From positions 1 to 24,011 of IMG/VR virus record IMGVR_UViG_2744054854_000003: 24,011 nucleotides of DNA, one strand, 5' to 3'. Position numbers and translations under genes: made by a program. The notes under the pieces are model-generated. The model was not told where the DNA came from. It saw only the letters and a list, made by a program, of their open reading frames with translations, and did no database searches. Shown piece after piece: positions 770 to 10,317 of the stretch (positions within the stretch are counted from its first letter, which is position 1; each line of letters starts with the position of its first letter). The DNA is from a virus. Taxonomy: Duplodnaviria; Heunggongvirae; Uroviricota; Caudoviricetes.

Positions 770-813
770 ATGTGCTCTTTGATATAGCGCACATTAACAT
801 CGGGAGAATAATT

Positions 814-969
814 GTGTCATCCAAGGCTAATTATGAATCGCTGGCATCGATCATGCCGCGTAATGAACAGGAAGCAGATGCTGTAGTGGACCCGGTAATC
901 GCTGAAATGAATGCTCGCCTGGAGGCTGAATTTGCAGCTGAGAATGAACATACCACCCAGGGCGACTAG
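814..969 (+). CDS. Small hypothetical protein (about 51 aa)
   Basis: GTG at 814 preceded by GGGAG with about 8 nt spacing, in frame with track ORF 772-969. No recognisable domain. Confidence 0.3.
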   Translation: MSSKANYESLASIMPRNEQEADAVVDPVIAEMNARLEAEFAAENEHTTQGD

Positions 970-1573
970 GACTGTTTTTTGTGTCGGTAGCGGTCCGTCA
1001 CTCACTCGTGAGGACTGTGCTGCTATAGAAAAAACTGGCTGTTCAATCATCGCGGTTAACAATTCCTGGCAGATGTTCGATGACATTTATGCCTTATACG
1101 CCGGTGATTTGTCATGGTGGAAGCAATACGGATCCACCATACCGGGAGGGAGATTCCGCAAAGTGACAGCCAACCTGGCGGCGGCGAAATCATTTTCGTT
1201 GGAGTACAGGCGATATTGTGGACCGGCTGAAGGGGTTAATAGCGGCGCGCAGACTATCAGTCTGGCGGCTGAATCAGGGGCTGAAGTAGTTGTATTAGTC
1301 GGCTATGACTGTTCTCTGCAAAACGGCCTTCATTGGCATGGAGCACACCCTCAAGCCCTACGGAATCCTACGCAGGTGTCTATTTCAAAATGGCAACAGC
1401 AGTTCCTGGATACCCGCAAAAAACACGCAGATTTACATATTTTGAATGCAAGTAGGAGCAGTGCAATTCAATGTTTCCCAAGAATAAATTTAGAGGCAGT
1501 GATCGCGTTATTATCGTCGGCAGTGGCCCAAGCGCCGCAAACTTTGTTGCGCCGCGCGGAGTGCCGATTATAG
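944..1573 (+). CDS. Hypothetical protein, paralogue A of a tandem pair (GSGPS...IAVN...LVGxD motifs)
   Basis: Track ORF 911-1573 with a likely start at ATG 944 (MNIPPRATRTVFCVGSGPS). Shares an ordered motif set with the next gene. A Rossmann-like or DUF115/MptE-like fold is a tentative guess only. Confidence 0.5.
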   Translation: MNIPPRATRTVFCVGSGPSLTREDCAAIEKTGCSIIAVNNSWQMFDDIYALYAGDLSWWKQYGSTIPGGRFRKVTANLAAAKSFSLEYRRYCGPAEGVNSGAQTISLAAESGAEVVVLVGYDCSLQNGLHWHGAHPQALRNPTQVSISKWQQQFLDTRKKHADLHILNASRSSAIQCFPRINLEAVIALLSSAVAQAPQTLLRRAECRL

Positions 1574-2097
1574 CGGTCAATGGGGCCATCGACTGGCTGA
1601 ACCGCGCTTCTTATTTTTTCACACTTGATCCATCGCCAGACAATATGCGGCGCGTTGGTCGTGGCCGCCGTCGCCGTGGTGTTTGTTATTGCATGGCACT
1701 ACCCGATGTTAAAGAACGTGAAGTCAGAGATGGCGTTCTGTGCTTCCGTCGTGTGGCTGAACGCGGCACAGAGCCAAAAAATACGAATTCTCCCGAGTGG
1801 TGGGCGTGGCGCTGGTCCGCACATTTCGGCCTTTGCGAAGATGAGAATGAAATTTCCAGCGGCAATAGTGCATATGGTGCTCTGAACCTGGCTTTCCATA
1901 TCGGATTCAAACATGTAGCCCTTGTGGGCGTTGACGCTACGCAAGAACTACGCGTTCACTCCGGCGGCACGCCAAAAAATCTAAGTCACCTGCCTTTGTT
2001 ATTCCAGTCTGCGCGTGAACAGATTGACGTTGTTTCATGCGGGAAAATGGGAGGTATTCCGCAGATGACTCTTAAAGAATGGCTGAAGAATACATGA
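1471..2097 (+). CDS. Hypothetical protein, paralogue B of the tandem pair, with an Arg/Gly-rich insert
   Basis: ATG 1471 preceded by AGGAG with about 11 nt spacing. Motifs [18 protein letters not shown] are present, with an extra 34-residue stretch ([12 protein letters not shown]...) relative to paralogue A. Overlaps the end of paralogue A by 103 nt in a different frame. Confidence 0.5.
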
Positions 2098-2771
2098 TGG
2101 CACCCACAATTTATCACCGTATCGACGGTACCAAATACAGGAATGTCTGGGTTGTTGGTGATCTGCATGGTTGCTACACCAGACTGATGTCCGAACTCCA
2201 TCGTGTGGATTTTGACCCGGCGCAGGATTTACTGATATCGGTCGGCGACCTTATCGATCGCGGTACTGAAAATGTCGAATGTCTGGAACTATTGCAGATG
2301 CCCTGGTTCAGGGCAGTGATGGGGAACCATGAGCGGCTGATGATTGATGCGTTAAGTCCAGATGGCAACGTGAATAACTGGCTAATGAATGGCGGACAAT
2401 GGTTCTTCATGCTGGACACTGATCAGGAAATATTAGCCTGGGCGCTGGTGGAGCTGGTAAAGCGTCTGCCCTATATCATTGAGTTGAACACCGGGCAAGA
2501 AACTATCGTTATAGCCCATGCCGACTATCCGGATAATGAATACCAATTCGGTAAGGAGGTGCCGCTTTTCAACGTTGTCTGGGCGCGCGAGCGTATCAGT
2601 GATTCGATGGATGATATTGGTGGCGAAATTTCGGGCGCAGATCGTTTTATCTTTGGTCACACTCCGGTGAAAAGCCCGAAGACATTCTGGAATCAGCAGT
2701 ATATCGACACTGGTGCCGTATTTTGCGGAAACCTGACATTGATGAAAGTGAAAGGTGATGGTGCAGCATGA
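2094..2771 (+). CDS. ppp: Ser/Thr protein phosphatase, lambda-PPase-like metallophosphoesterase
   Basis: GDLHGC, GDLIDRG, GNHE and GHTP motifs, and strong resemblance to lambda phosphatase as I remember it ([15 protein letters not shown]...). Start 2094 taken as an ATGA overlap with the upstream stop; the track start is 2079. The symbol is by analogy to P1 ppp. Confidence 0.85.
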
Positions 2772-3469
2772 AGATTGCTTTAGTTTTTCGCTCTGGTGGT
2801 GACTATAACGCTTCCGATGTGCAGTGGCTGGTTAATCAACTGCCAAAAGGCTATGAAATTATTTGCCTGACAGACCTGAAGCGTTTACATGTACCTGGCG
2901 TCAAAGTTGTCCCATTGATCAACCAGTGGCAAAAGTGCCGTGGCTGGTGGGCGAAAATCGAGTTGTTCCGACCGGATATAACAGATGATCTGTTCTATCT
3001 GGATTTGGACACAGTTATTGCCGGTGATATACGCCCAATCCTTGAGAATCCACCAACCAGCTTCACCATGCTTAGGGATTTTTACCATCCACAATATCGT
3101 GGTAGCGGTGCCCTGTGGATACCAAATAGTGTAAAAGCGCATATCTGGAGTTCATTCTGGCAAGATCCGGAAGGTTGGATTTCTCGTTGTGTCACTACTG
3201 AGTGCTGGGGTGATCAGGGGTTCTTACGGAAGGTTATGGGCGATGATACACCAGCATTTCAGGATCTGTATCCAGGATGGTTTGTAAGTTACAAGGCCGA
3301 TGTTGTGGAACCTGGTTCAAAATATGCGAGCGCGCGTTACTCCAGGGGGAATGGGGCATTACCAAAGGACTGCCGAATAATCTTTTTCCACGGCAAACCG
3401 CGACCTCGCGAAGTGTCAGAGGATTGGCTTCCCCTTATTAGCTCGTTTTTTGAGCGAGAATCAGAATAA
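2768..3469 (+). CDS. Hypothetical protein (pmgQ position), possible glycosyltransferase-like DxD motif
   Basis: 233-aa ORF whose ATG overlaps the ppp stop (ATGA). Contains YLDLDTVI, reminiscent of a nucleotide-sugar transferase DxD motif; this is weak evidence. Confidence 0.55.
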
Positions 3470-3470
3470 T

Positions 3471-3536
3471 ATTGCTCTAATAATTCCATATTTTTAAAAC
3501 GTGATGTACACTCATCACGTTTTTTATTAGAGCAAT
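3471..3536. promoter_or_regulatory. Two inverted C1 operator matches flanking a hairpin
   Basis: ATTGCTCTAATAATTCC at 3471-3487 on the plus strand, and ATTGCTCTAATAAAAAA on the minus strand at 3520-3536. Between them sits a hairpin (AAAACGTGATG / CATCACGTTTT, 3496-3523) followed by a T-run. Confidence 0.6.
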
Positions 3537-3550
3537 CCAAAAGGTGCACT

Positions 3551-3769
3551 ATGTGGCCATTCCGACGGAAATATCACTACTGGCTGATCGCCTTTGTTAC
3601 GCCGACCGGCGGTATCAGGCATGTCATCACCAGGTATCGCAACAAGAGACTCACCTTAGCCAGAATTTTACAGGCTGCCATAGGTGAGGGACTGGATACA
3701 AATTGCGTAGTCCTTCCTCCTTCATACTTAGGAAAAATGACCGAAGCACAAGCTAATACGGAACTTTGA
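3551..3769 (+). CDS. Small hypothetical protein (72 aa)
   Basis: ATG preceded by AAGGTG; ends 1 nt before the next start. No domain recognised. Confidence 0.35.
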   Translation: MWPFRRKYHYWLIAFVTPTGGIRHVITRYRNKRLTLARILQAAIGEGLDTNCVVLPPSYLGKMTEAQANTEL

Positions 3770-3770
3770 A

Positions 3771-5033
3771 ATGAGCACTTCAGCACAAAACCAATCAATC
3801 GAAAATGTATCTATCCCTGATGTCCTGAATGCCGGTATCCCGGCCATTATCCAGAACATCCGGGCCGCGCAACGCCGCGTTAGTTGTGATGACCTCACAG
3901 CACGTTTTTTTGATAATGCGGTTCAGTCAGCGGAGATGCTTCACGCACAGCTTATTGATGTTTATAACGCAGAAGCTGATAGCCATAACTCCCTGGTAGA
4001 TGCAGCTGAAAATATGCAGTTGGATCTCGGTCTGAAGGGTAAAGAAATTGAAGAGCTTCAGCTGGAAATTGAACATTTGAAACGCCAGCAACAGGACGCG
4101 ATCGACGATGCGACGCATGACGCCAACCAGCGTGCTGATAATGCCGAACGTATAAGCATTGAGCTGGAAACAAAACTCAATGAAATGACCGCGATGGTTG
4201 AACTGCGGAACTCACAGATTTCAACGCTAAAATCTCAATATAAAGAGATCATGAAACTTGATCCTTTTAACCTTGAGAAACGCTATAACAAAGCTAAAAG
4301 CGAGCGACAGGAACTGCGTAAGCAGGTCGCTGACCTTAACCAACAGCTCAAAAAAACTATTAAAGATGCAAGCGAAGCGCGCGTGGCATTTGCTAATAAA
4401 AAAGCAGAGGTTACTGCGCTGGTTAATGAGAATGCCAAATTTGCGACGCTCAAGAAGGAAATGTATGGCATTACTGAGCGCCGTTTCCCTGCAAGCAAAC
4501 TTCATCCGACGTTAGGGCAAATCTCCTTCTTCCCGCGCCTCCTGGCTTATGGGATCTCATCGCCTAAAGAGTTCAATAACGAGCGTCCTTATATCGTTTC
4601 TAAGCTGGACTTTGCTTATCAGTTCTGCTGCGACATGGGCTATGCCATTGATATCCGGATCAACGAATGGCTGATGCCAAACTTCCAGCCGTTGGCCATT
4701 TTCCGCGAGTTCCAGCCGGAAGGTTGGGTAGAGTTCTTCCATGAATTGATCTGTAAAGAGATGGAAAGCCGCCGCCCGGAACTGGTCCGTCGAGTTGAGT
4801 GGGCGCAAGAGGTTATGTTGGCAGAGGCAGAGCTGCCGTTCGAACCGGAATTTATTGATAATCTGGCAGCTAAAGGGCTGCATACCCTGTTTGATGTGGT
4901 TACCCGCCGTCATGAGCAGTTGGTTGTCGAATTGGGTTTAGAGGAAACAGCGGCAAGAAGACTTCTCGATGTTTGCTATGCACGTAGCGATGCATGGGAA
5001 AAAGAGAACGGCGGCACTATTTACGTTCGCTGA
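3771..5033 (+). CDS. Hypothetical protein with a coiled-coil-rich N-terminal half (420 aa)
   Basis: Long ORF with heptad-like charged composition in residues about 60-230 (LQLEIEHLKRQQQ..., QELRKQVADLNQQLKK). The C-terminal half is unrecognised. Confidence 0.6.
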   Translation: MSTSAQNQSIENVSIPDVLNAGIPAIIQNIRAAQRRVSCDDLTARFFDNAVQSAEMLHAQLIDVYNAEADSHNSLVDAAENMQLDLGLKGKEIEELQLEIEHLKRQQQDAIDDATHDANQRADNAERISIELETKLNEMTAMVELRNSQISTLKSQYKEIMKLDPFNLEKRYNKAKSERQELRKQVADLNQQLKKTIKDASEARVAFANKKAEVTALVNENAKFATLKKEMYGITERRFPASKLHPTLGQISFFPRLLAYGISSPKEFNNERPYIVSKLDFAYQFCCDMGYAIDIRINEWLMPNFQPLAIFREFQPEGWVEFFHELICKEMESRRPELVRRVEWAQEVMLAEAELPFEPEFIDNLAAKGLHTLFDVVTRRHEQLVVELGLEETAARRLLDVCYARSDAWEKENGGTIYVR

Positions 5034-5105
5034 TAGTTACAGTGTCACTTTTAATGCTGGTGGAGTGCTCCCACCAGCATTTTTTTCGTCCAATGAGGAG
5101 GGCAT

Positions 5106-5612
5106 TTGAGTATTTTCAATAAACACGCACACCAGGAACGTCCGTACATCGTCATAGTAGATATTGATGGGACGATATCAGAGGCAACGGAAGACAGGCT
5201 GCATTTACTTCCACCACCTGGCAAAGGTGCATTAACAGAGCACTGGAACGAGTTTAACCTTGCCTGTGACACTGATGCTCCCATCACTCCAGTTATTGAT
5301 ATGGTGCGCCAGTTATTTAACGTTTACACGGTCTGGTTTGTAACCGGGCGCTGTGAGATCGCAAGGGATAAAACACGAGCCTGGCTGCGGAAGTACGTAA
5401 CAAACGGGGCTGAGCCTTTGCTATCTATGCGTCCTGCCACCGATGACAGAAATGACGGTCCAGCAAAGATTGATCTCCTGAAGAAAATTGGTCTAAGTAA
5501 AATTGCGTTCGCGCTGGAAGATAAGATTGAAGTGGCGCGTGTGTTCAGGAGTCATGGCGTACTTACATTAATGGTCAGGGAGTATGAAAATGCGCTTCTT
5601 CATCAACAATAA
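5106..5612 (+). CDS. HAD-superfamily phosphatase-like protein
   Basis: TTG start preceded by GAGGAG with 6 nt spacing. N-terminal VIVDIDGTIS matches the HAD DxDG(T) motif I; motif II-like VWFVTGR follows. Possibly equivalent to P1 pap, by position. Confidence 0.6.
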   Translation: MSIFNKHAHQERPYIVIVDIDGTISEATEDRLHLLPPPGKGALTEHWNEFNLACDTDAPITPVIDMVRQLFNVYTVWFVTGRCEIARDKTRAWLRKYVTNGAEPLLSMRPATDDRNDGPAKIDLLKKIGLSKIAFALEDKIEVARVFRSHGVLTLMVREYENALLHQQ

Positions 5613-5628
5613 TTGTTCTAATAAATCT
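5612..5628 (+). promoter_or_regulatory. C1 operator-like site
   Basis: ATTGTTCTAATAAATCT, 15 of 17 matches to the consensus. It overlaps a possible -35 TTGATT (5627-5632) with a -10-like TAAAAA 17 bp downstream. Confidence 0.5.
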
Positions 5629-5650
5629 TGATTTTTAAAACAGAGAAAGT

Positions 5651-5683
5651 AAAAATAAAAACATGCCGCAAGGCGCGGCATGT
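5651..5683 (-). terminator. Rho-independent terminator, effective on the minus strand (hsdR operon end)
   Basis: 8-bp GC-rich stem CATGCCGC / GCGGCATG with a 5-nt loop. On the minus strand it is followed by a long U-run (plus-strand AAAAATAAAAA at 5651-5661); the plus-strand side has only TTT. Confidence 0.6.
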
Positions 5684-5710
5684 TTCCAATCAATCACAGG
5701 AGCTGAAAAT

Positions 5711-5797
5711 ATGAACACGGCATTCAAAATCATTATGGCCGCGATCTATTTCTGGCTGTTCTCTATCACTTTTGACGGCATCGTCGCGCATGGGTAA
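5711..5797 (+). CDS. Candidate small hydrophobic peptide (28 aa, MNTAFKIIMAAIYFWLFSITFDGIVAHG)
   Basis: ATG at 5711 with AGGAG at 5698-5702 (8 nt spacing). A single predicted transmembrane-length hydrophobic stretch. Below the ORF-track size cutoff; unproven. Confidence 0.3.
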   Translation: MNTAFKIIMAAIYFWLFSITFDGIVAHG

Positions 5798-5876
5798 GGG
5801 GAGTATATTAGCCATTTGGAACCCCACGAGCTCTTGCGGGTTTAATTAAGAACCCGCAAGAAAAACACGAATTGGG

Positions 5877-8800
5877 CTATATTTTTCCGCCTACGCCTTT
5901 AAACTTCTCAATAAACGAGACGATTTTCTGGAAAACTGCCTGTTTTTTCGTTTTATATTGCGGATTCAACGGACTAAGTTTTGGTAATGTTTCGTTTAAT
6001 TCTGTGCCATTTTCGGTGGCGTATTCGCGTTTTAAAGACGTGCGAATATAGCGTTTTGCTGCATCTTCATTGAGATTTTCTTCTTTTATCAATGCTTCTG
6101 CTTCACGTTGCTGTTCGCGTTGAGCAAACGTAAAGAATGCCTCAATGATACTGGCTTTGTCTGGTAAATCATCCAGGTTCGTTTGCTGAATAAAATCGAC
6201 CACCAGGCCCTCTTTCGCCCGGTTCCCCAGGCTTGAACGAATTAAGCGTTTGACCTCTTCGATCATTTCGCCCTTGCCTTTATTTTGTCTGTTGTGTTCG
6301 AAAATCAGTCCAAGGATATAATCCAGGTTTATTTCCTGAGACTTCAGCAAATCGACCTCAAAAACCACGTCATCCCAGTCAGTGGTTGATTTTTCTTTTT
6401 TATCAGCTTCTTTCTCGCGGCGCTGCCAGTCGCGAATATCGTTATAGGCAGAACGATAATCCTGAATCTTGCGATCAGCAGGGAGACGAATTGTTTGCAA
6501 TTCAGCGAACTTTTCATCATCCACATAATGTTCTGCTTTGAATTTTTCTACCGCAACAGGATCGCTAAGATCGATTTGTTGCAGGGCTTTTAGCGTGGCA
6601 AATTCATCATAGTTTTGCAGGATGTTCTCGGCACGCAGGTATTCGCCAAACAGTTTAACGAAGTCTTTCTTCTCTTTTTCACTTTCAATACTGGTAGGGT
6701 CAGGGAACCGTTGTTCCAGTTCTGAAACTACTGTCATGAAGCCGCGTTTAGCTTCACCAGTAGCAGCATCAGTAAAGCCTTCCATATACTCTGTATAACT
6801 CTTTTCTAACACCACATTTTTGGTGTTTTTGTCACCAAACAGCGTTATGGCATCAATAGTTGAGCGTTCCAGATCCCGGAAAGTGACGATATTACCGAAG
6901 GTTTTAGTTGCATCATAAATACGGTTGGTGCGGGAAAATGCCTGCATCAGGCCGTGAAAACGCAAGTTTTTATCGACGAATAGCGTGTTCAATGTTGGAG
7001 CATCGAAGCCGGTTAAAAACATCCCCACGACAATTAGCAGATCGATATCCTGATTTTTAACCCGCTGGGCTAAATCACGATAGTAGTTCTGAAAACCGTT
7101 ACTGTCGGTGCTGAAGTTAGTTTTAAAATGGCTGTTATATTCACGAATTGCAGCGTCCAGAAACTCTTTAGCACTGCTGTCCATTGCGCTGGTATCAAAA
7201 GTTTCATCGGAAATTTCACCAATGGCATTTTGTTCTTCATTAGCGGCAAAGGAGAAGATTGTCGCAACACGCAGCGGTTTATAGGTAGCCGATTTATTAG
7301 CGGCTTCCTCTTGTAACCGTTTAAACGTCGCATAATAGGCTTTTGCAGCATCCACGCTGCTTACTGCCAACATAGCATTAAAACCTTTTGAGCCAGGGAA
7401 GGTACGGTGGGTTTTCTGGCGGAAATTATTCAGAATATATTGCGTGATTTCCTGAATACGCATGGGATGAAGAAACGCCTGCTGATTTTCAGCCGCACTT
7501 AGTTTTTTCTCGTCAGTTTCTGTCTCTAAAGACTTAAACTGTGGCCGCACATCGTTGTAGTCCACCTTGAATTTGAGCACTTTTTCGTCACGAATCGCAT
7601 CGGTAATTACATACGAATGCAATTCACGACCAAATACGCTGGCGGTTGTTTCTGAGCCTAAGGCGTTTTCCGGGAAAATAGGGGTGCCGGTAAAACCAAA
7701 CTGATAATAGCGTTTGAATTTCTTCTTCAGGTTTTTCTGCGCTTCTCCAAACTGGCTGCGGTGGCATTCATCAAATATAAACACCACTTGCTGATTATAT
7801 ACAGGCAGGTCGCTTTCTGCTTTCATCAGGTTATTGAGTTTCTGAATAGTAGTGACGATAATTTTGTTATCGTCCTTATCCAGATTTCGTTTAAGGCCTG
7901 CGGTATTTTCCGAGCCGTTGACGCTGTCTGGCGAAAAACGCTGATATTCCTTCATGGTCTGGTAATCGAGGTCTTTCCTGTCGACCACAAAGAAGACTTT
8001 ATCAATAAAGTCCAGCTCTGTTGCCAGACGCGCGGCTTTAAAGCTGGTGAGGGTTTTACCAGAACCGGTAGTGTGCCAGATATACCCACCGCTTTCCGGT
8101 TTTGACCAGTTCTTCGCTGTAAAGGAACTCTTAATTTTCCACAGAATGCGCTCGGTGGCAGCAATCTGGTACGGTCGCATCACCAGTAGTGTCTGACTAC
8201 TGTCAAACACGCTGTAGTTCACCAGAACATTCAGCAGAGTATGTTTCTGGAAAAAGGTGGCGGTAAAGTCTTTGAGGTCTTTAATCAGCGTGTTGTCTGA
8301 TTTCGCCCAGTTCATGGTGAAGTCAAAACTGTTTTTATCGCGCTTTGTCGTGTTGGCAAAATAACGGGTATCGGTGCCGTTGGAAATGACGAACAGCTGC
8401 AGATACTTAAACAGGGAATTTTCGCTGTTAAAACTCTCTTTACTGTAACGATGTATCTGGTTGAAAGCCTCACGAATCGCCACCCCGCGTTTTTTTAGTT
8501 CGATTTGCACCAGCGGTAAACCATTAACCAGGATCGTGACGTCATAACGGTTAGCATGAGAACCCGTCTGTTCAAACTGCTGGATAATCTGCACCTTATT
8601 GCGCATGAGATTCTTTTTATCTATCAAATAGATGTTCTCAAGTCGCCCGTCGTCAAAAATAAAGTCGCAGATATAGTCGATATGGATTTTACGGGTTTTA
8701 TCCAGAATACCATCGCTGGGGTTGTCCAGATACTGCTCCGTGAAGCGCCGCCACTCGCTGTCATTAAACATCACACCATTGAGGCTCTGAAGCTGTTCCC

Positions 8801-8993
8801 GAACATTGGACAGCATTGCCGACTGTGATTTTACGGAAATAAATTCATAACCCTGATTCCGCAGGTCCTGAATCAGTTCACGTTCCAGGTCCGATTCGCT
8901 CTGGTAGCTGTCGCTTGTTTGCTCAGCTTTGATGTACTTATCAAGGACGATAAAGTTATTGGATTCAGCAATGGTGTGTGTTTGATGAGTCAT
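5877..8993 (-). CDS. hsdR: Type I restriction enzyme R subunit (1038 aa)
   Basis: Walker A ([12 protein letters not shown]) and DEAD-type box ([12 protein letters not shown]) helicase motifs. The length matches EcoR124I HsdR as I recall it. Has its own upstream intergenic region of 121 bp. Confidence 0.9.
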
Positions 8994-9114
8994 AGCGCAT
9001 CCTTTGTGCCGCCTGGCAAGAGCCGGAAGGGCGTTAAGAGTGACTTCCGGCGCGTAAAAAATAGTCTATATACTGACCGGGTGTTAAGGTGGCCCGATCG
9101 GTAGCAATGGTCAA

Positions 9115-10317
9115 TTAATTACTGACAGTTTCAGGTTTCGGGAAACTGAAAAGTAAATCACGGTAGTATTCGTATTGTTTCTGGCGCAACTCGATTTCAC
9201 GCGGAAGGCCTTCGGTGATGGAGTTTGTCAGGTTGTAAAATTTATCCATCGTGGCGACGATATAAAGTTGTTCATCGTATGATGGGATAGGTATTTCAAA
9301 TGCTCTCAACGATTTTAAACCTAAGTTTTTAATAGTTGAACCTGTTTTTTGATTTTCAAAATACTGTTTTGCGTAATTGGTTTGCAGGAAATAGAAAAGA
9401 TATCTAGTGTGGAGTTCAGGTGATTTAATTTTAAAATAGGCCACAGACTTACCGAGTACGATCTTCTCATTATTGTAAAAGGAAACATTTCCAATTGTGC
9501 CATTAATTGACAGGAAAACAGTATTTATTGGGTCAAAATGAATTCCGTGTTTTTTAAACATAGAATCATTAACCTTTTTTGTGTTATCGTTAAATGATAT
9601 TTTTTGATAGCCTAAATTGTTTCCATTGATAAAGAAATAATCACCGTTGGCGTCATATTCTGGAGTACCATGCAAACCGTCTCCAATTACACATAGCTCT
9701 CCTAATTTCAGACGTTTAACATCGTGGGCACCAAAACTAAATAACCGGTCGCGATAGTAGTTGTACTGTTTTTTACGCATGTTAAGCTCAGCGGTAAGCT
9801 CAGCGGTAAGTGCAGTAAATTTGTCCAGAATCCGAACGATTTCAGACTGGATGGCAAGGGATTTTTCCGGATTATCCGGGCAGGGGATTGGTACAGGTAT
9901 CTCAATTAATTGTCCTTTAGTTAATTTTGCCCTTCCTCCCCCGGTAAGGAAGGGAAGGAAATTAACGATGCATAAATAATGATATAGAAATCTAGAATGA
10001 ACTCTTTCTTTTCCTCGTACGACATGAACATGGTTGTTTGCCCAGAATTTACCAGTTGCATATTGAATTGAATAATTTTCTAAACTAGCCGAGCCATCTT
10101 CTGCAATTAAGACATATTCACCATCGTGGGTATATCCATCCACATAGTCTTGAATGTTGTTAGCACCATAATAGGGCGTCTCGCCTGCAATGCGCAAAGA
10201 GGCTTTTACTGGCTTTCTTCCATTATTCGCTATTTCGAAGAGTGAAGTATCACCAAGATTTCTCCACTCAACTTCAACCCCATCCAGCAATTTTTCCAGA
10301 TAACTTAACTCGCTCAT
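9115..10317 (-). CDS. hsdS: Type I R-M specificity subunit (400 aa), type IC-like
   Basis: Central conserved region with a TAELTAEL repeat, and the duplicated YYRD(R/L)LFSF motif at mid-protein and C-terminus, as in EcoR124-family HsdS. Its start overlaps the hsdM stop. Confidence 0.9.
9784..9816 (-). repeat. 12-bp tandem repeat (2 copies plus a degenerate third) encoding TAEL-TAEL in hsdS
   Basis: AAGCTCAGCGGT occurs twice (9784-9795 and 9796-9807), followed by AAGTGCAGT. The minus-strand translation is [11 protein letters not shown]. Confidence 0.85.

Follow-up and report, generated by a model that had tools for sequence, protein, structure and literature searches.

The subject of this report is a pair of adjacent, overlapping plus-strand genes, pmgO (911..1573; hdmB in phage P7) and pmgP (1471..2097; hdmC in P7). 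They lie in a 24,011-nucleotide (nt) stretch of Caudoviricetes DNA, positions 1 to 24,011 of the record IMGVR_UViG_2744054854_000003, which is called the window below. The two genes encode paralogous proteins of the MptE-like fold which, together with the product of nearby pmgQ, probably form a glycan-building module that draws on a cytidine monophosphate (CMP)-activated ulosonic acid, with a protein as the most likely acceptor. The window region as a whole is that of a P1-like phage, with about 98% identity to P1: positions 700-2800 match phage P1 (NC_005856, 79381-81481) at 98.2% identity and P7 at 97.7%, and many P1-like phage-plasmids are similarly near. Gene names were carried over from the P1 and P7 annotation by way of this 98% DNA identity. 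Both the identity and the annotation bear out the link to the P1 pmgN/O/P region drawn in a preliminary description, which had been made from the letters of the window alone. The start of pmgO lies at 911 in the P1 annotation and at 944 in the preliminary description. The 103-nt overlap of the two genes (1471..1573, plus strand), read there from open reading frames (ORFs) at 944-1573 and 1471-2097, is confirmed by the ORF list, and the same overlap is annotated in P1 and P7. Database versions of PmgO and PmgP are 99% and 98% identical, respectively, to the window proteins. Indeed, public annotation already contains the two ORFs and the overlap between them, together with a label that likens the products to sialyltransferases. 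The papers searched assign no function to either gene and hold only essentiality and expression data, and the main text of the P1 virion-proteome paper does not mention them. Knock-down of pmgO, pmgP or the downstream genes ppp and pmgQ by CRISPR interference (CRISPRi) did not reduce P1 plating (PMC10695390).

The pmgO-pmgP pair and its fold

PmgO and PmgP are single-domain proteins of 209 and 208 residues that share an ordered set of motifs. The GSGPS codons lie at 986-1000 in pmgO and 1519-1533 in pmgP, the IIAVN codons at 1046-1060 and 1567-1581, and these are followed by LVGYD in pmgO (1295-1309) and LVGVD in pmgP (1921-1935). The preliminary description had proposed from these motifs a tandem duplication of a Rossmann-like domain. 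Compared directly by BLASTP, the two proteins align in the N-terminal GSGPS...IIAVN region only (14/36 identities, E 0.004). When the comparison is made between family profiles, each built from 105 homologues, hhalign pairs 156 columns, which extend from the N-terminal loop as far as the C-terminal helix (probability 98.1%, E 1.1e-13), and this places the shared motif set beyond chance. AlphaFold2 models computed from the family alignments are confident, with a mean predicted local distance difference test score (pLDDT) of 94.3 for PmgO and 94.8 for PmgP, and the fold is shared between them, so that structure prediction, which could have spoken against the duplication, does not. On the strength of the profile alignment and the confident models, pmgO and pmgP are genuine, ancient paralogues of one Rossmann-like domain.

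The fold in question is the three-layer alpha/beta fold of MptE. Both proteins carry the N-terminal G-x-G-P-S loop and the central N-S-(G/A)...G-x-D motif of the MptE-like/DUF115 superfamily, and the invariant residues include those of the motifs: G17, P18, S19, N39, D55, S100, G101, G120 and D122 in PmgO, and P20, N37, D53, G131, N132, S133, G153 and D155 in PmgP. The only Pfam hit of either protein is to PF01973 (MptE-like), of which both match solely the C-terminal part of the model, with scores of 21.7 bits (PmgO) and 21.2 bits (PmgP) that do not reach the gathering cut-off of 34.6. Many of their homologues exceed this cut-off or carry precomputed hits, and a natural PmgO-PmgP fusion described below scores 44.6 bits. 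Since the window proteins fall below the cut-off and many homologues and the fusion lie above it, the family sits at the edge of the PF01973 model. A structure search of BFVD returned only unnamed or MptE-like viral proteins, and among the structure matches of the two models SteA, thiamine pyrophosphokinases and eukaryotic sialyltransferases rank lower. An early guess at a DUF115/MptE-like and glycosyltransferase fold is thus upheld by the fold and profile comparisons, and the most suitable place for PmgO and PmgP is in the MptE-like/Maf/GT42/WaaZ fold superfamily, as members yet to be characterised.

The four characterised branches of this superfamily have different chemistries. Maf, Cst/GT42 and WaaZ enzymes transfer an ulosonic acid from a CMP-sugar, whereas MptE is a pyrophosphokinase. 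Maf of Magnetospirillum magneticum (PDB 5mu5) has the MptE-like fold in common with PmgO and PmgP. However, Maf proteins are about 600 residues long (632 in the 5mu5 target), with flanking domains, and are encoded at flagellar loci, whereas PmgO and PmgP are the bare core of about 200 residues; about 160 of the 632 residues align, and the flanking N- and C-terminal acceptor-binding domains of Maf have no counterpart. Unlike Maf, the proteins form a paralogous pair, have a GT8 partner and are phage-borne. The Campylobacter enzymes Cst-I and Cst-II (GT42; PDB 2p56 and 1ro8) likewise have the same fold. At the level of sequence, the similarity is not significant: the PmgO profile matches Cst-II at E 1.1-1.3 and the PmgP profile gives no hit to it. 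The conserved histidines of the Cst enzymes (His188 in Cst-II) also appear to occupy other positions than those of PmgO (H130, H132 and H135, with an HWHGxH motif eight residues past the GYD motif) and PmgP (H173). Further, E. coli K-12 is not known to make CMP-sialic acid, for which reason the sialyltransferase label is almost certainly wrong about the donor; in RefSeq and PHROG the label reads 'alpha-2,3-sialyltransferase', which is probably misleading in the same respect.

The basic loop, the alternative frame and the overlap

An Arg/Gly-rich insert had been noted in PmgP at the preliminary stage. The stretch itself is present (codons 1648..1683, plus strand; PmgP residues 60-71, located by column counts over the 105 homologues and in the model), but it is not an insert relative to the orthologues. 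As these carry the basic stretch, it is no recent insertion, a possibility that the family alignment rules out; it forms a well-ordered basic loop that the PmgP family has conserved. The conserved pattern is D53-P-S-x-x-N58-x-x-R61-[LM]-x-x-R-R68-x-G70-V71-x-Y73, in which D53, N58 and Y73 are invariant across the 105 homologues, with R61 kept in 100, R68 in 89, G70 in 85 and V71 in 93. The segment is 19 residues long in 96 of these proteins. The P1 clade, which accounts for eight, has 21 residues, just two more (G-R/A-R), and the highest basic count. In the model the loop is ordered (pLDDT 96-98) and lies between a helix (56-62) and a strand (72-77). The true difference from PmgO, as seen in the hhalign alignment and the model, is a PmgP-specific segment of about 40-60 residues (1636..1821, plus strand; residues ~56-117, delimited by hhalign gaps, model secondary structure and conservation) that comprises the basic loop, three beta-strands and an SPEWWxWRW helix and faces gaps in PmgO. 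A terminator-like hairpin in the GC-rich tract (1658-1680) was set aside as not meaningful within a coding region, with seven such sites in 3.4 kb against an expectation of 3.2 +/- 2.2.

Across the same tract runs an alternative-frame ORF (1625..1885, plus strand; TTG start, +1 frame of pmgP) of 86 codons with a hydrophobic segment, for which the preliminary description had offered three readings: a real embedded gene, a frameshift site or a coincidence. The last of these holds and the other two are not supported. That the ORF is a real overprinted gene for a small membrane peptide would be suggested by its existence, by the hydrophobic segment and by the fact that the same frame is open in several relatives (e.g. 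3723-4031 of Cronobacter phage JK004). However, when the codons of pmgP were shuffled synonymously with protein and codon usage held fixed (n=5000), the +1 frame stayed open over 94 codons, the length observed, or more in 48% of shuffles (mean 87). The frame is closed, into pieces of 23-42 codons, in six of 17 divergent homologues (phiNP, L016, L017, L020, L021 and L022). Compared with JK004 and a Pantoea plasmid, whose PmgP proteins are 80% and 72% identical to that of the window, the alternative product is poorly kept, and in the Pantoea relative the hydrophobic run becomes SDAWPPDAAAGESSIAAL, with loss of hydrophobicity. Nor is there any sign of added constraint on pmgP, the fraction of synonymous differences being 0.61 and 0.64 inside the ORF and 0.49 and 0.54 outside it.

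Variation within the P1-like population points the same way. Among 59 distinct haplotypes from 81 loci, 43 variants fall inside the ORF. In the pmgP frame 34 of them are synonymous and nine non-synonymous, whereas in the alternative frame four are synonymous, 36 non-synonymous and three nonsense, and four of the 59 haplotypes have an internal stop in that frame. Its product has no PHROG match. The ORF thus shows neither excess length nor a frame kept open in relatives, and neither purifying selection in its own frame nor fewer synonymous changes in pmgP. An embedded membrane-peptide gene, ruled out by the shuffle, conservation and population tests alike, can be dismissed with near certainty. 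ORF 1625-1885 is not a gene; it is a by-product of the CGN/GGN codons of pmgP which, read one base later, become GNC/GNG codons (Gly, Ala, Val), hence the hydrophobic-looking peptide.

The overlap of pmgO and pmgP is a different case. It includes a doubly constrained junction (1461..1520, plus strand) that holds the last conserved PmgO codons together with the pmgP start codon and N-terminal leader. In the PmgO family, conservation of the core extends as far as CFPRxxLExx[IL]; the tail beyond it, of 0 to ~50 residues, is not conserved. The pmgP ATG (1471) falls within the Q-C-F codons of pmgO, and the Shine-Dalgarno sequence of pmgP, AGGAG (1454-1458), lies within conserved PmgO S-R-S codons just upstream of 1461, an arrangement also found in JK004, phiNP, L005 and the Pantoea element. 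Among the 59 haplotypes, the longest invariant run of a 1200-nt region is 1460-1521. The overlap has seven variants, all at or past 1521; all seven are non-synonymous in the pmgO frame, and in the pmgP frame six are synonymous and one is non-synonymous. Because the invariant run ends where these variants, all of which change the PmgO tail, begin, about 50 nt of the overlap are truly double-coding, and the other ~50 nt are an unconstrained PmgO tail, tolerated because the frame meets no stop there. In adjacent pairs the position of the pmgO stop relative to the first pmgP GSGPS codon varies between 16 nt upstream and 109 nt downstream, and the overlap between about 4 and 157 nt (70 in JK004, 94 in phiNP and 157 in L005).

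A long overlap of this kind could also reflect programmed -1 ribosomal frameshifting, for example at A_AAT_TTA (1486-1492), giving a PmgO-PmgP fusion. Indeed, of 29 adjacent pairs, 27 have pmgP in the -1 frame relative to pmgO, the frame that it also has in the window, two X_XXY_YYZ heptamers lie within the overlap, the first 50 nt of which are invariant among P1-like genomes, and another phage has a natural in-frame O-P fusion gene. However, an ancestral ATGA stop/start overlap would be expected to leave the two genes in just this -1 relation, and the invariance of the overlap is accounted for by double coding. Comparison of the window, JK004, phiNP, L005 and L008 showed no conservation of the heptamers, which are missing from JK004 and phiNP and differ in position elsewhere. 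The overlap RNA folds no better than shuffled sequences (z -1.17), and pmgP has its own conserved AGGAG and ATG. The lack of a conserved slippery heptamer and of significant RNA structure rules against a programmed frameshift site, and this explanation is very improbable; programmed frameshifting in the overlap is not supported, with P1 alone a possible case.

Overlapping pairs of this type have each lost a gene in two public annotations, the pmgO homologue in JK004 (L003, 3000-3638) and the pmgP homologue in Escherichia phage EP_H11 (L183, 7001-7609), probably due to the rejection of long overlaps by gene callers. What was first noticed at this locus is in itself largely ordinary, as the ORFs and their overlap are annotated in P1 and P7 and the alternative ORF is an artefact of codon composition. 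The wider interest lies in the genes that accompany the pair.

The O-P-Q module and its proposed function

The third member of the block, pmgQ (2768..3469, plus strand; hdmD in P7), encodes a GT8-like (glycogenin-like) glycosyltransferase, an assignment that stems from comparison of its family profile with the PDB. In an alignment of 31 members, D79-x-D81 (the DxD motif) and H208 are invariant, and the profile matches the Skp1 alpha-galactosyltransferase 6mw5 (E 4.4e-7) and glycogenin-1 (E 3.6e-5), with LgtC among the weak matches. The DxD motif, the C-terminal histidine and the structural similarity expected of GT8 enzymes are thus all found in PmgQ. The window protein alone has no Pfam hit, and eight of the 31 members match PF01501 weakly.

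Among 1.8 billion representative proteins, 778 relatives were identified, and a neighbourhood census was taken over about 50 non-identical loci from genome and viral contig collections. Most of these loci contain all three of O, P and Q, and pmgQ accompanies pmgP in nearly all of them. The gene orders are O-P-Q, O-Q-P and Q-P, and the hosts comprise Enterobacteriaceae, Zhongshania, Brevundimonas, Methylophilaceae, Commensalibacter and Sinomicrobium (Bacteroidota). The module repeatedly contains additional genes, namely those for class I S-adenosylmethionine (SAM) methyltransferases, FkbM-family methyltransferases and another nucleotide-diphospho-sugar transferase. Further, natural fusions, confirmed with local hidden Markov models, join its members in several ways. 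They include an O-P fusion (P0241, 376 residues; L182, 6001-7131) that follows the lysis genes of a 62-kb phage contig and is itself followed by Q, two P-Q fusions (P0249 and P0318, ~400 residues each), a Q-P fusion (P0326, 416 residues) and a Q-P-SAM methyltransferase fusion (P0299, 616 residues). In P0358, P0373 and P0388, PmgP is fused to a second domain. Taken together, the linkage, the accessory genes, the natural fusions and the GT8 likeness of PmgQ indicate that the O-P-Q enzymes probably act in one pathway that assembles or modifies a glycan. These associations also bear on the possibility that PmgO and PmgP are small-molecule pyrophosphokinases or kinases, similar to archaeal MptE or thiamine pyrophosphokinase. 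The one Pfam hit, to the MptE-like model, would suit such an activity, but the constant linkage, and sometimes fusion, to a GT8 glycosyltransferase, FkbM methyltransferases and a nucleotide-diphospho (NDP)-sugar transferase would not, which makes it improbable.

The position of the module is informative as to what it may act on. In 14 loci it adjoins or interleaves with head-morphogenesis genes. The fullest order, in L124, is TerL, portal, S78 protease, HK97-type capsid, the module (O-P-(methyltransferase)-Q), gp6-like connector and head completion protein, and in L129 (~4980-9437) and L133 (~872-5314) pmgO is split from pmgP by genes for the head-tail connector and for head completion. In phiNP-type phages and L182 the module comes after the lysis genes, just before or near packaging and head genes. 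Outside phages, in five Pseudescherichia chromosomal loci (L010-L014; e.g. L010, 357-9873), O, P and Q flank an inverse autotransporter adhesin of 1178 residues with an IAT_beta domain and seven Big_1 repeats, and a 999-residue Big_1/RCC1-repeat protein is also present; this arrangement suggests an adhesin-glycosylation island. As read from their sequences, no signal peptide or membrane segment is evident in PmgO, PmgP or PmgQ of P1, and PADLOC gave no hit to known defence or anti-defence families. No description of the conserved O-P-Q module, its fusions or its frequent capsid-side position was found in the papers searched.

On the proposed reading, PmgO, PmgP and the GT8-like PmgQ would act together as a cytoplasmic glycan-building module, to which other phages would add SAM/FkbM methyltransferases and one more NDP-sugar transferase. 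The genes overlap tightly, which probably serves to couple their translation and so to produce the enzymes together. The most likely reaction of PmgO and PmgP would be the transfer of an ulosonic acid from a CMP-sugar, for which CMP-3-deoxy-D-manno-octulosonic acid (CMP-Kdo) is the candidate, as no other such donor would be at hand in all Gram-negative hosts, among them E. coli K-12. PmgQ would most likely add a hexose from a uridine diphosphate (UDP)-sugar. The acceptor would most likely be a protein, namely a virion protein in phages and an adhesin in the chromosomal copies; cytoplasmic protein glycosylation is favoured because of the capsid-side and adhesin-side contexts and the lack of an evident signal peptide. 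The fully specified version, in which O-P-Q (with the methyltransferases where present) decorates virion proteins and some adhesins with a short glycan of Kdo or another CMP-activated ulosonic acid, can be put forward only tentatively. If true, coliphage virions would have their first described system of protein glycosylation, and CMP-Kdo a new role beyond lipopolysaccharide (LPS) and capsule synthesis.

Two known types of system resemble such an arrangement. Che8-type mycobacteriophages have glycosyltransferase genes beside the capsid gene, much as the module lies beside the major capsid gene in the 14 loci. These glycosyltransferases are taken to glycosylate virion proteins, an expectation stated in PMC11256854. 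The Che8-type systems differ in hosts, which are Gram-negative for the module, and in enzyme families, which here are an MptE-like pair and a GT8 enzyme, and a glycosylated virion protein is not known from P1 or any other module-bearing phage. In the AIDA-I/AAH, TibA/TibC and HMW1/HMW1C systems, a soluble glycosyltransferase encoded beside a large surface adhesin modifies the adhesin before export. The Pseudescherichia loci, with O, P and Q flanking an inverse autotransporter, are similar. However, the enzymes of the AIDA-I, TibA and HMW1 systems are heptosyl- or hexosyltransferases of other folds, and the Pseudescherichia link is one of gene neighbourhood only.

Several observations weigh against the proposed function. 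The papers searched hold no biochemical or genetic evidence for any activity of the proteins, and the fold is common to pyrophosphokinases too (MptE, thiamine pyrophosphokinase), so that transferase chemistry is a prediction. The window proteins score under the Pfam gathering threshold, Cst-II is matched only at E ~1, and the extra acceptor-binding domains of Maf proteins are lacking. The capsid families beside the module differ (HK97-type, lambda-type, Phage_capsid_4 and P1 gp23), which speaks against a single specific protein acceptor. The genomic setting is not always capsid-related either. In EP_H11, where the annotation reads 'hypothetical' throughout, the module lies among small early-type genes, in L022 it lies among nucleotide-metabolism genes, and the P1 operon is annotated as controlled by the C1 repressor and not only late. 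Finally, all known hosts are Gram-negative, and GT8 and WaaZ-type enzymes are classic LPS-core enzymes, so that an LPS acceptor fits almost as well.

It is therefore a serious, if less likely, alternative that the module remodels the LPS inner core of the host or another envelope glycan and not a protein. PmgO and PmgP would then add Kdo-type residues in the manner of WaaZ and PmgQ a hexose in the manner of the GT8 enzymes WaaO and WaaJ, and LPS-core receptors, which P1 itself uses, would be masked during lytic growth. WaaZ, the Kdo III transferase of E. coli K-12, matches PF01973 at E 6.9e-7 with a sub-threshold score similar to those of PmgO and PmgP and, judging from sequence comparison, appears to belong to the same fold superfamily as the Maf and Cst enzymes. 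Its donor is CMP-Kdo, present in every host of these phages. Weak matches to WaaZ families recur (TIGR04437 at E 0.05 for PmgP; a faint match to PF27901, WaaZ_KDO_III, for the O-P fusion). PmgQ is GT8-like with LgtC among its weak matches, every named host is Gram-negative, these hosts share the Kdo-lipid A region, and PmgO and PmgP are small and have no protein-acceptor domains. However, a direct hhalign comparison with WaaZ gives a probability of only 13-15%, and WaaZ, encoded in the chromosomal waa cluster, comes from one gene and not from a pair. Against a TIGR04437 threshold of 200 bits PmgP scores 12.9 bits and PmgO has no hit. Direct membership of PmgO and PmgP in the WaaZ family was rejected, the profile comparison not being significant. 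Further, a place within head-gene clusters (14 loci, with interleaved connector genes in L129 and L133) is more usual for functions that act on the virion, the chromosomal copies lie on either side of an adhesin and not of an LPS cluster, and the annotation of the P1 operon as C1-repressed speaks against a lysogenic-conversion function. The PF01973 match of this E. coli K-12 WaaZ (L103, 5346-6197) spans almost the whole domain.

With a protein as the favoured acceptor, the position of the module and its fusions provide a testable hypothesis for a long-unexplained gene block of P1. P1, among the phages most used in genetics, carries a conserved, non-essential module of three putative glycan-building enzymes, and the same module lies beside capsid genes in many unrelated phages, with fused genes too.

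Neighbouring genes and other features of the window

Upstream of the pair lies pmgN (772..969, plus strand; hdmA in P7), placed by the ORF list and the P1/P7 annotation as the first gene past the C1-controlled promoter. The P1 annotation gives it a shorter form, equivalent to window positions 814-969. Its 3' end runs 26 nt into pmgO if that gene is taken to start at 944, and 59 nt if at 911. Its CRISPRi knock-down lowered P1 plating ~100-fold, and the gene was scored as essential, unlike in an earlier study that scored it as non-essential (PMC10695390). Downstream, pmgP is followed by ppp (2079..2771, plus strand), which encodes a lambda NinI-like Ser/Thr phosphatase (Pfam Metallophos, 9e-16). 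The placement of ppp between pmgP and pmgQ is seen only in the P1 clade; the gene is absent from this position in JK004, phiNP and most other loci.

In the P1 annotation, a C1 operator and promoter lie directly upstream of pmgN, and a late promoter lies farther upstream, before pmgL. In the window, the genes pmgN to pmgQ are separated from the upstream pmgL promoters. Positions 1-433 are not P1-like, and similarity to P1-type phages begins at 434. This non-P1 stretch cuts pmgM (VRR-NUC; named by transfer of the P1/P7 annotation) down to its 3' part at 385-747, the C-terminal 120 of 192 codons. A minus-strand ORF at 11-397 encodes a protein similar to OrfA of IS3-family transposases, presumably of the IS911 type. 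Farther along the window, three large minus-strand ORFs between 5877 and 11876, with products of 1038, 400 and 520 residues, resemble the type I restriction-modification genes hsdR, hsdS and hsdM, and the best-matching phage record under this stretch lists HsdR2 and a restriction subunit S.

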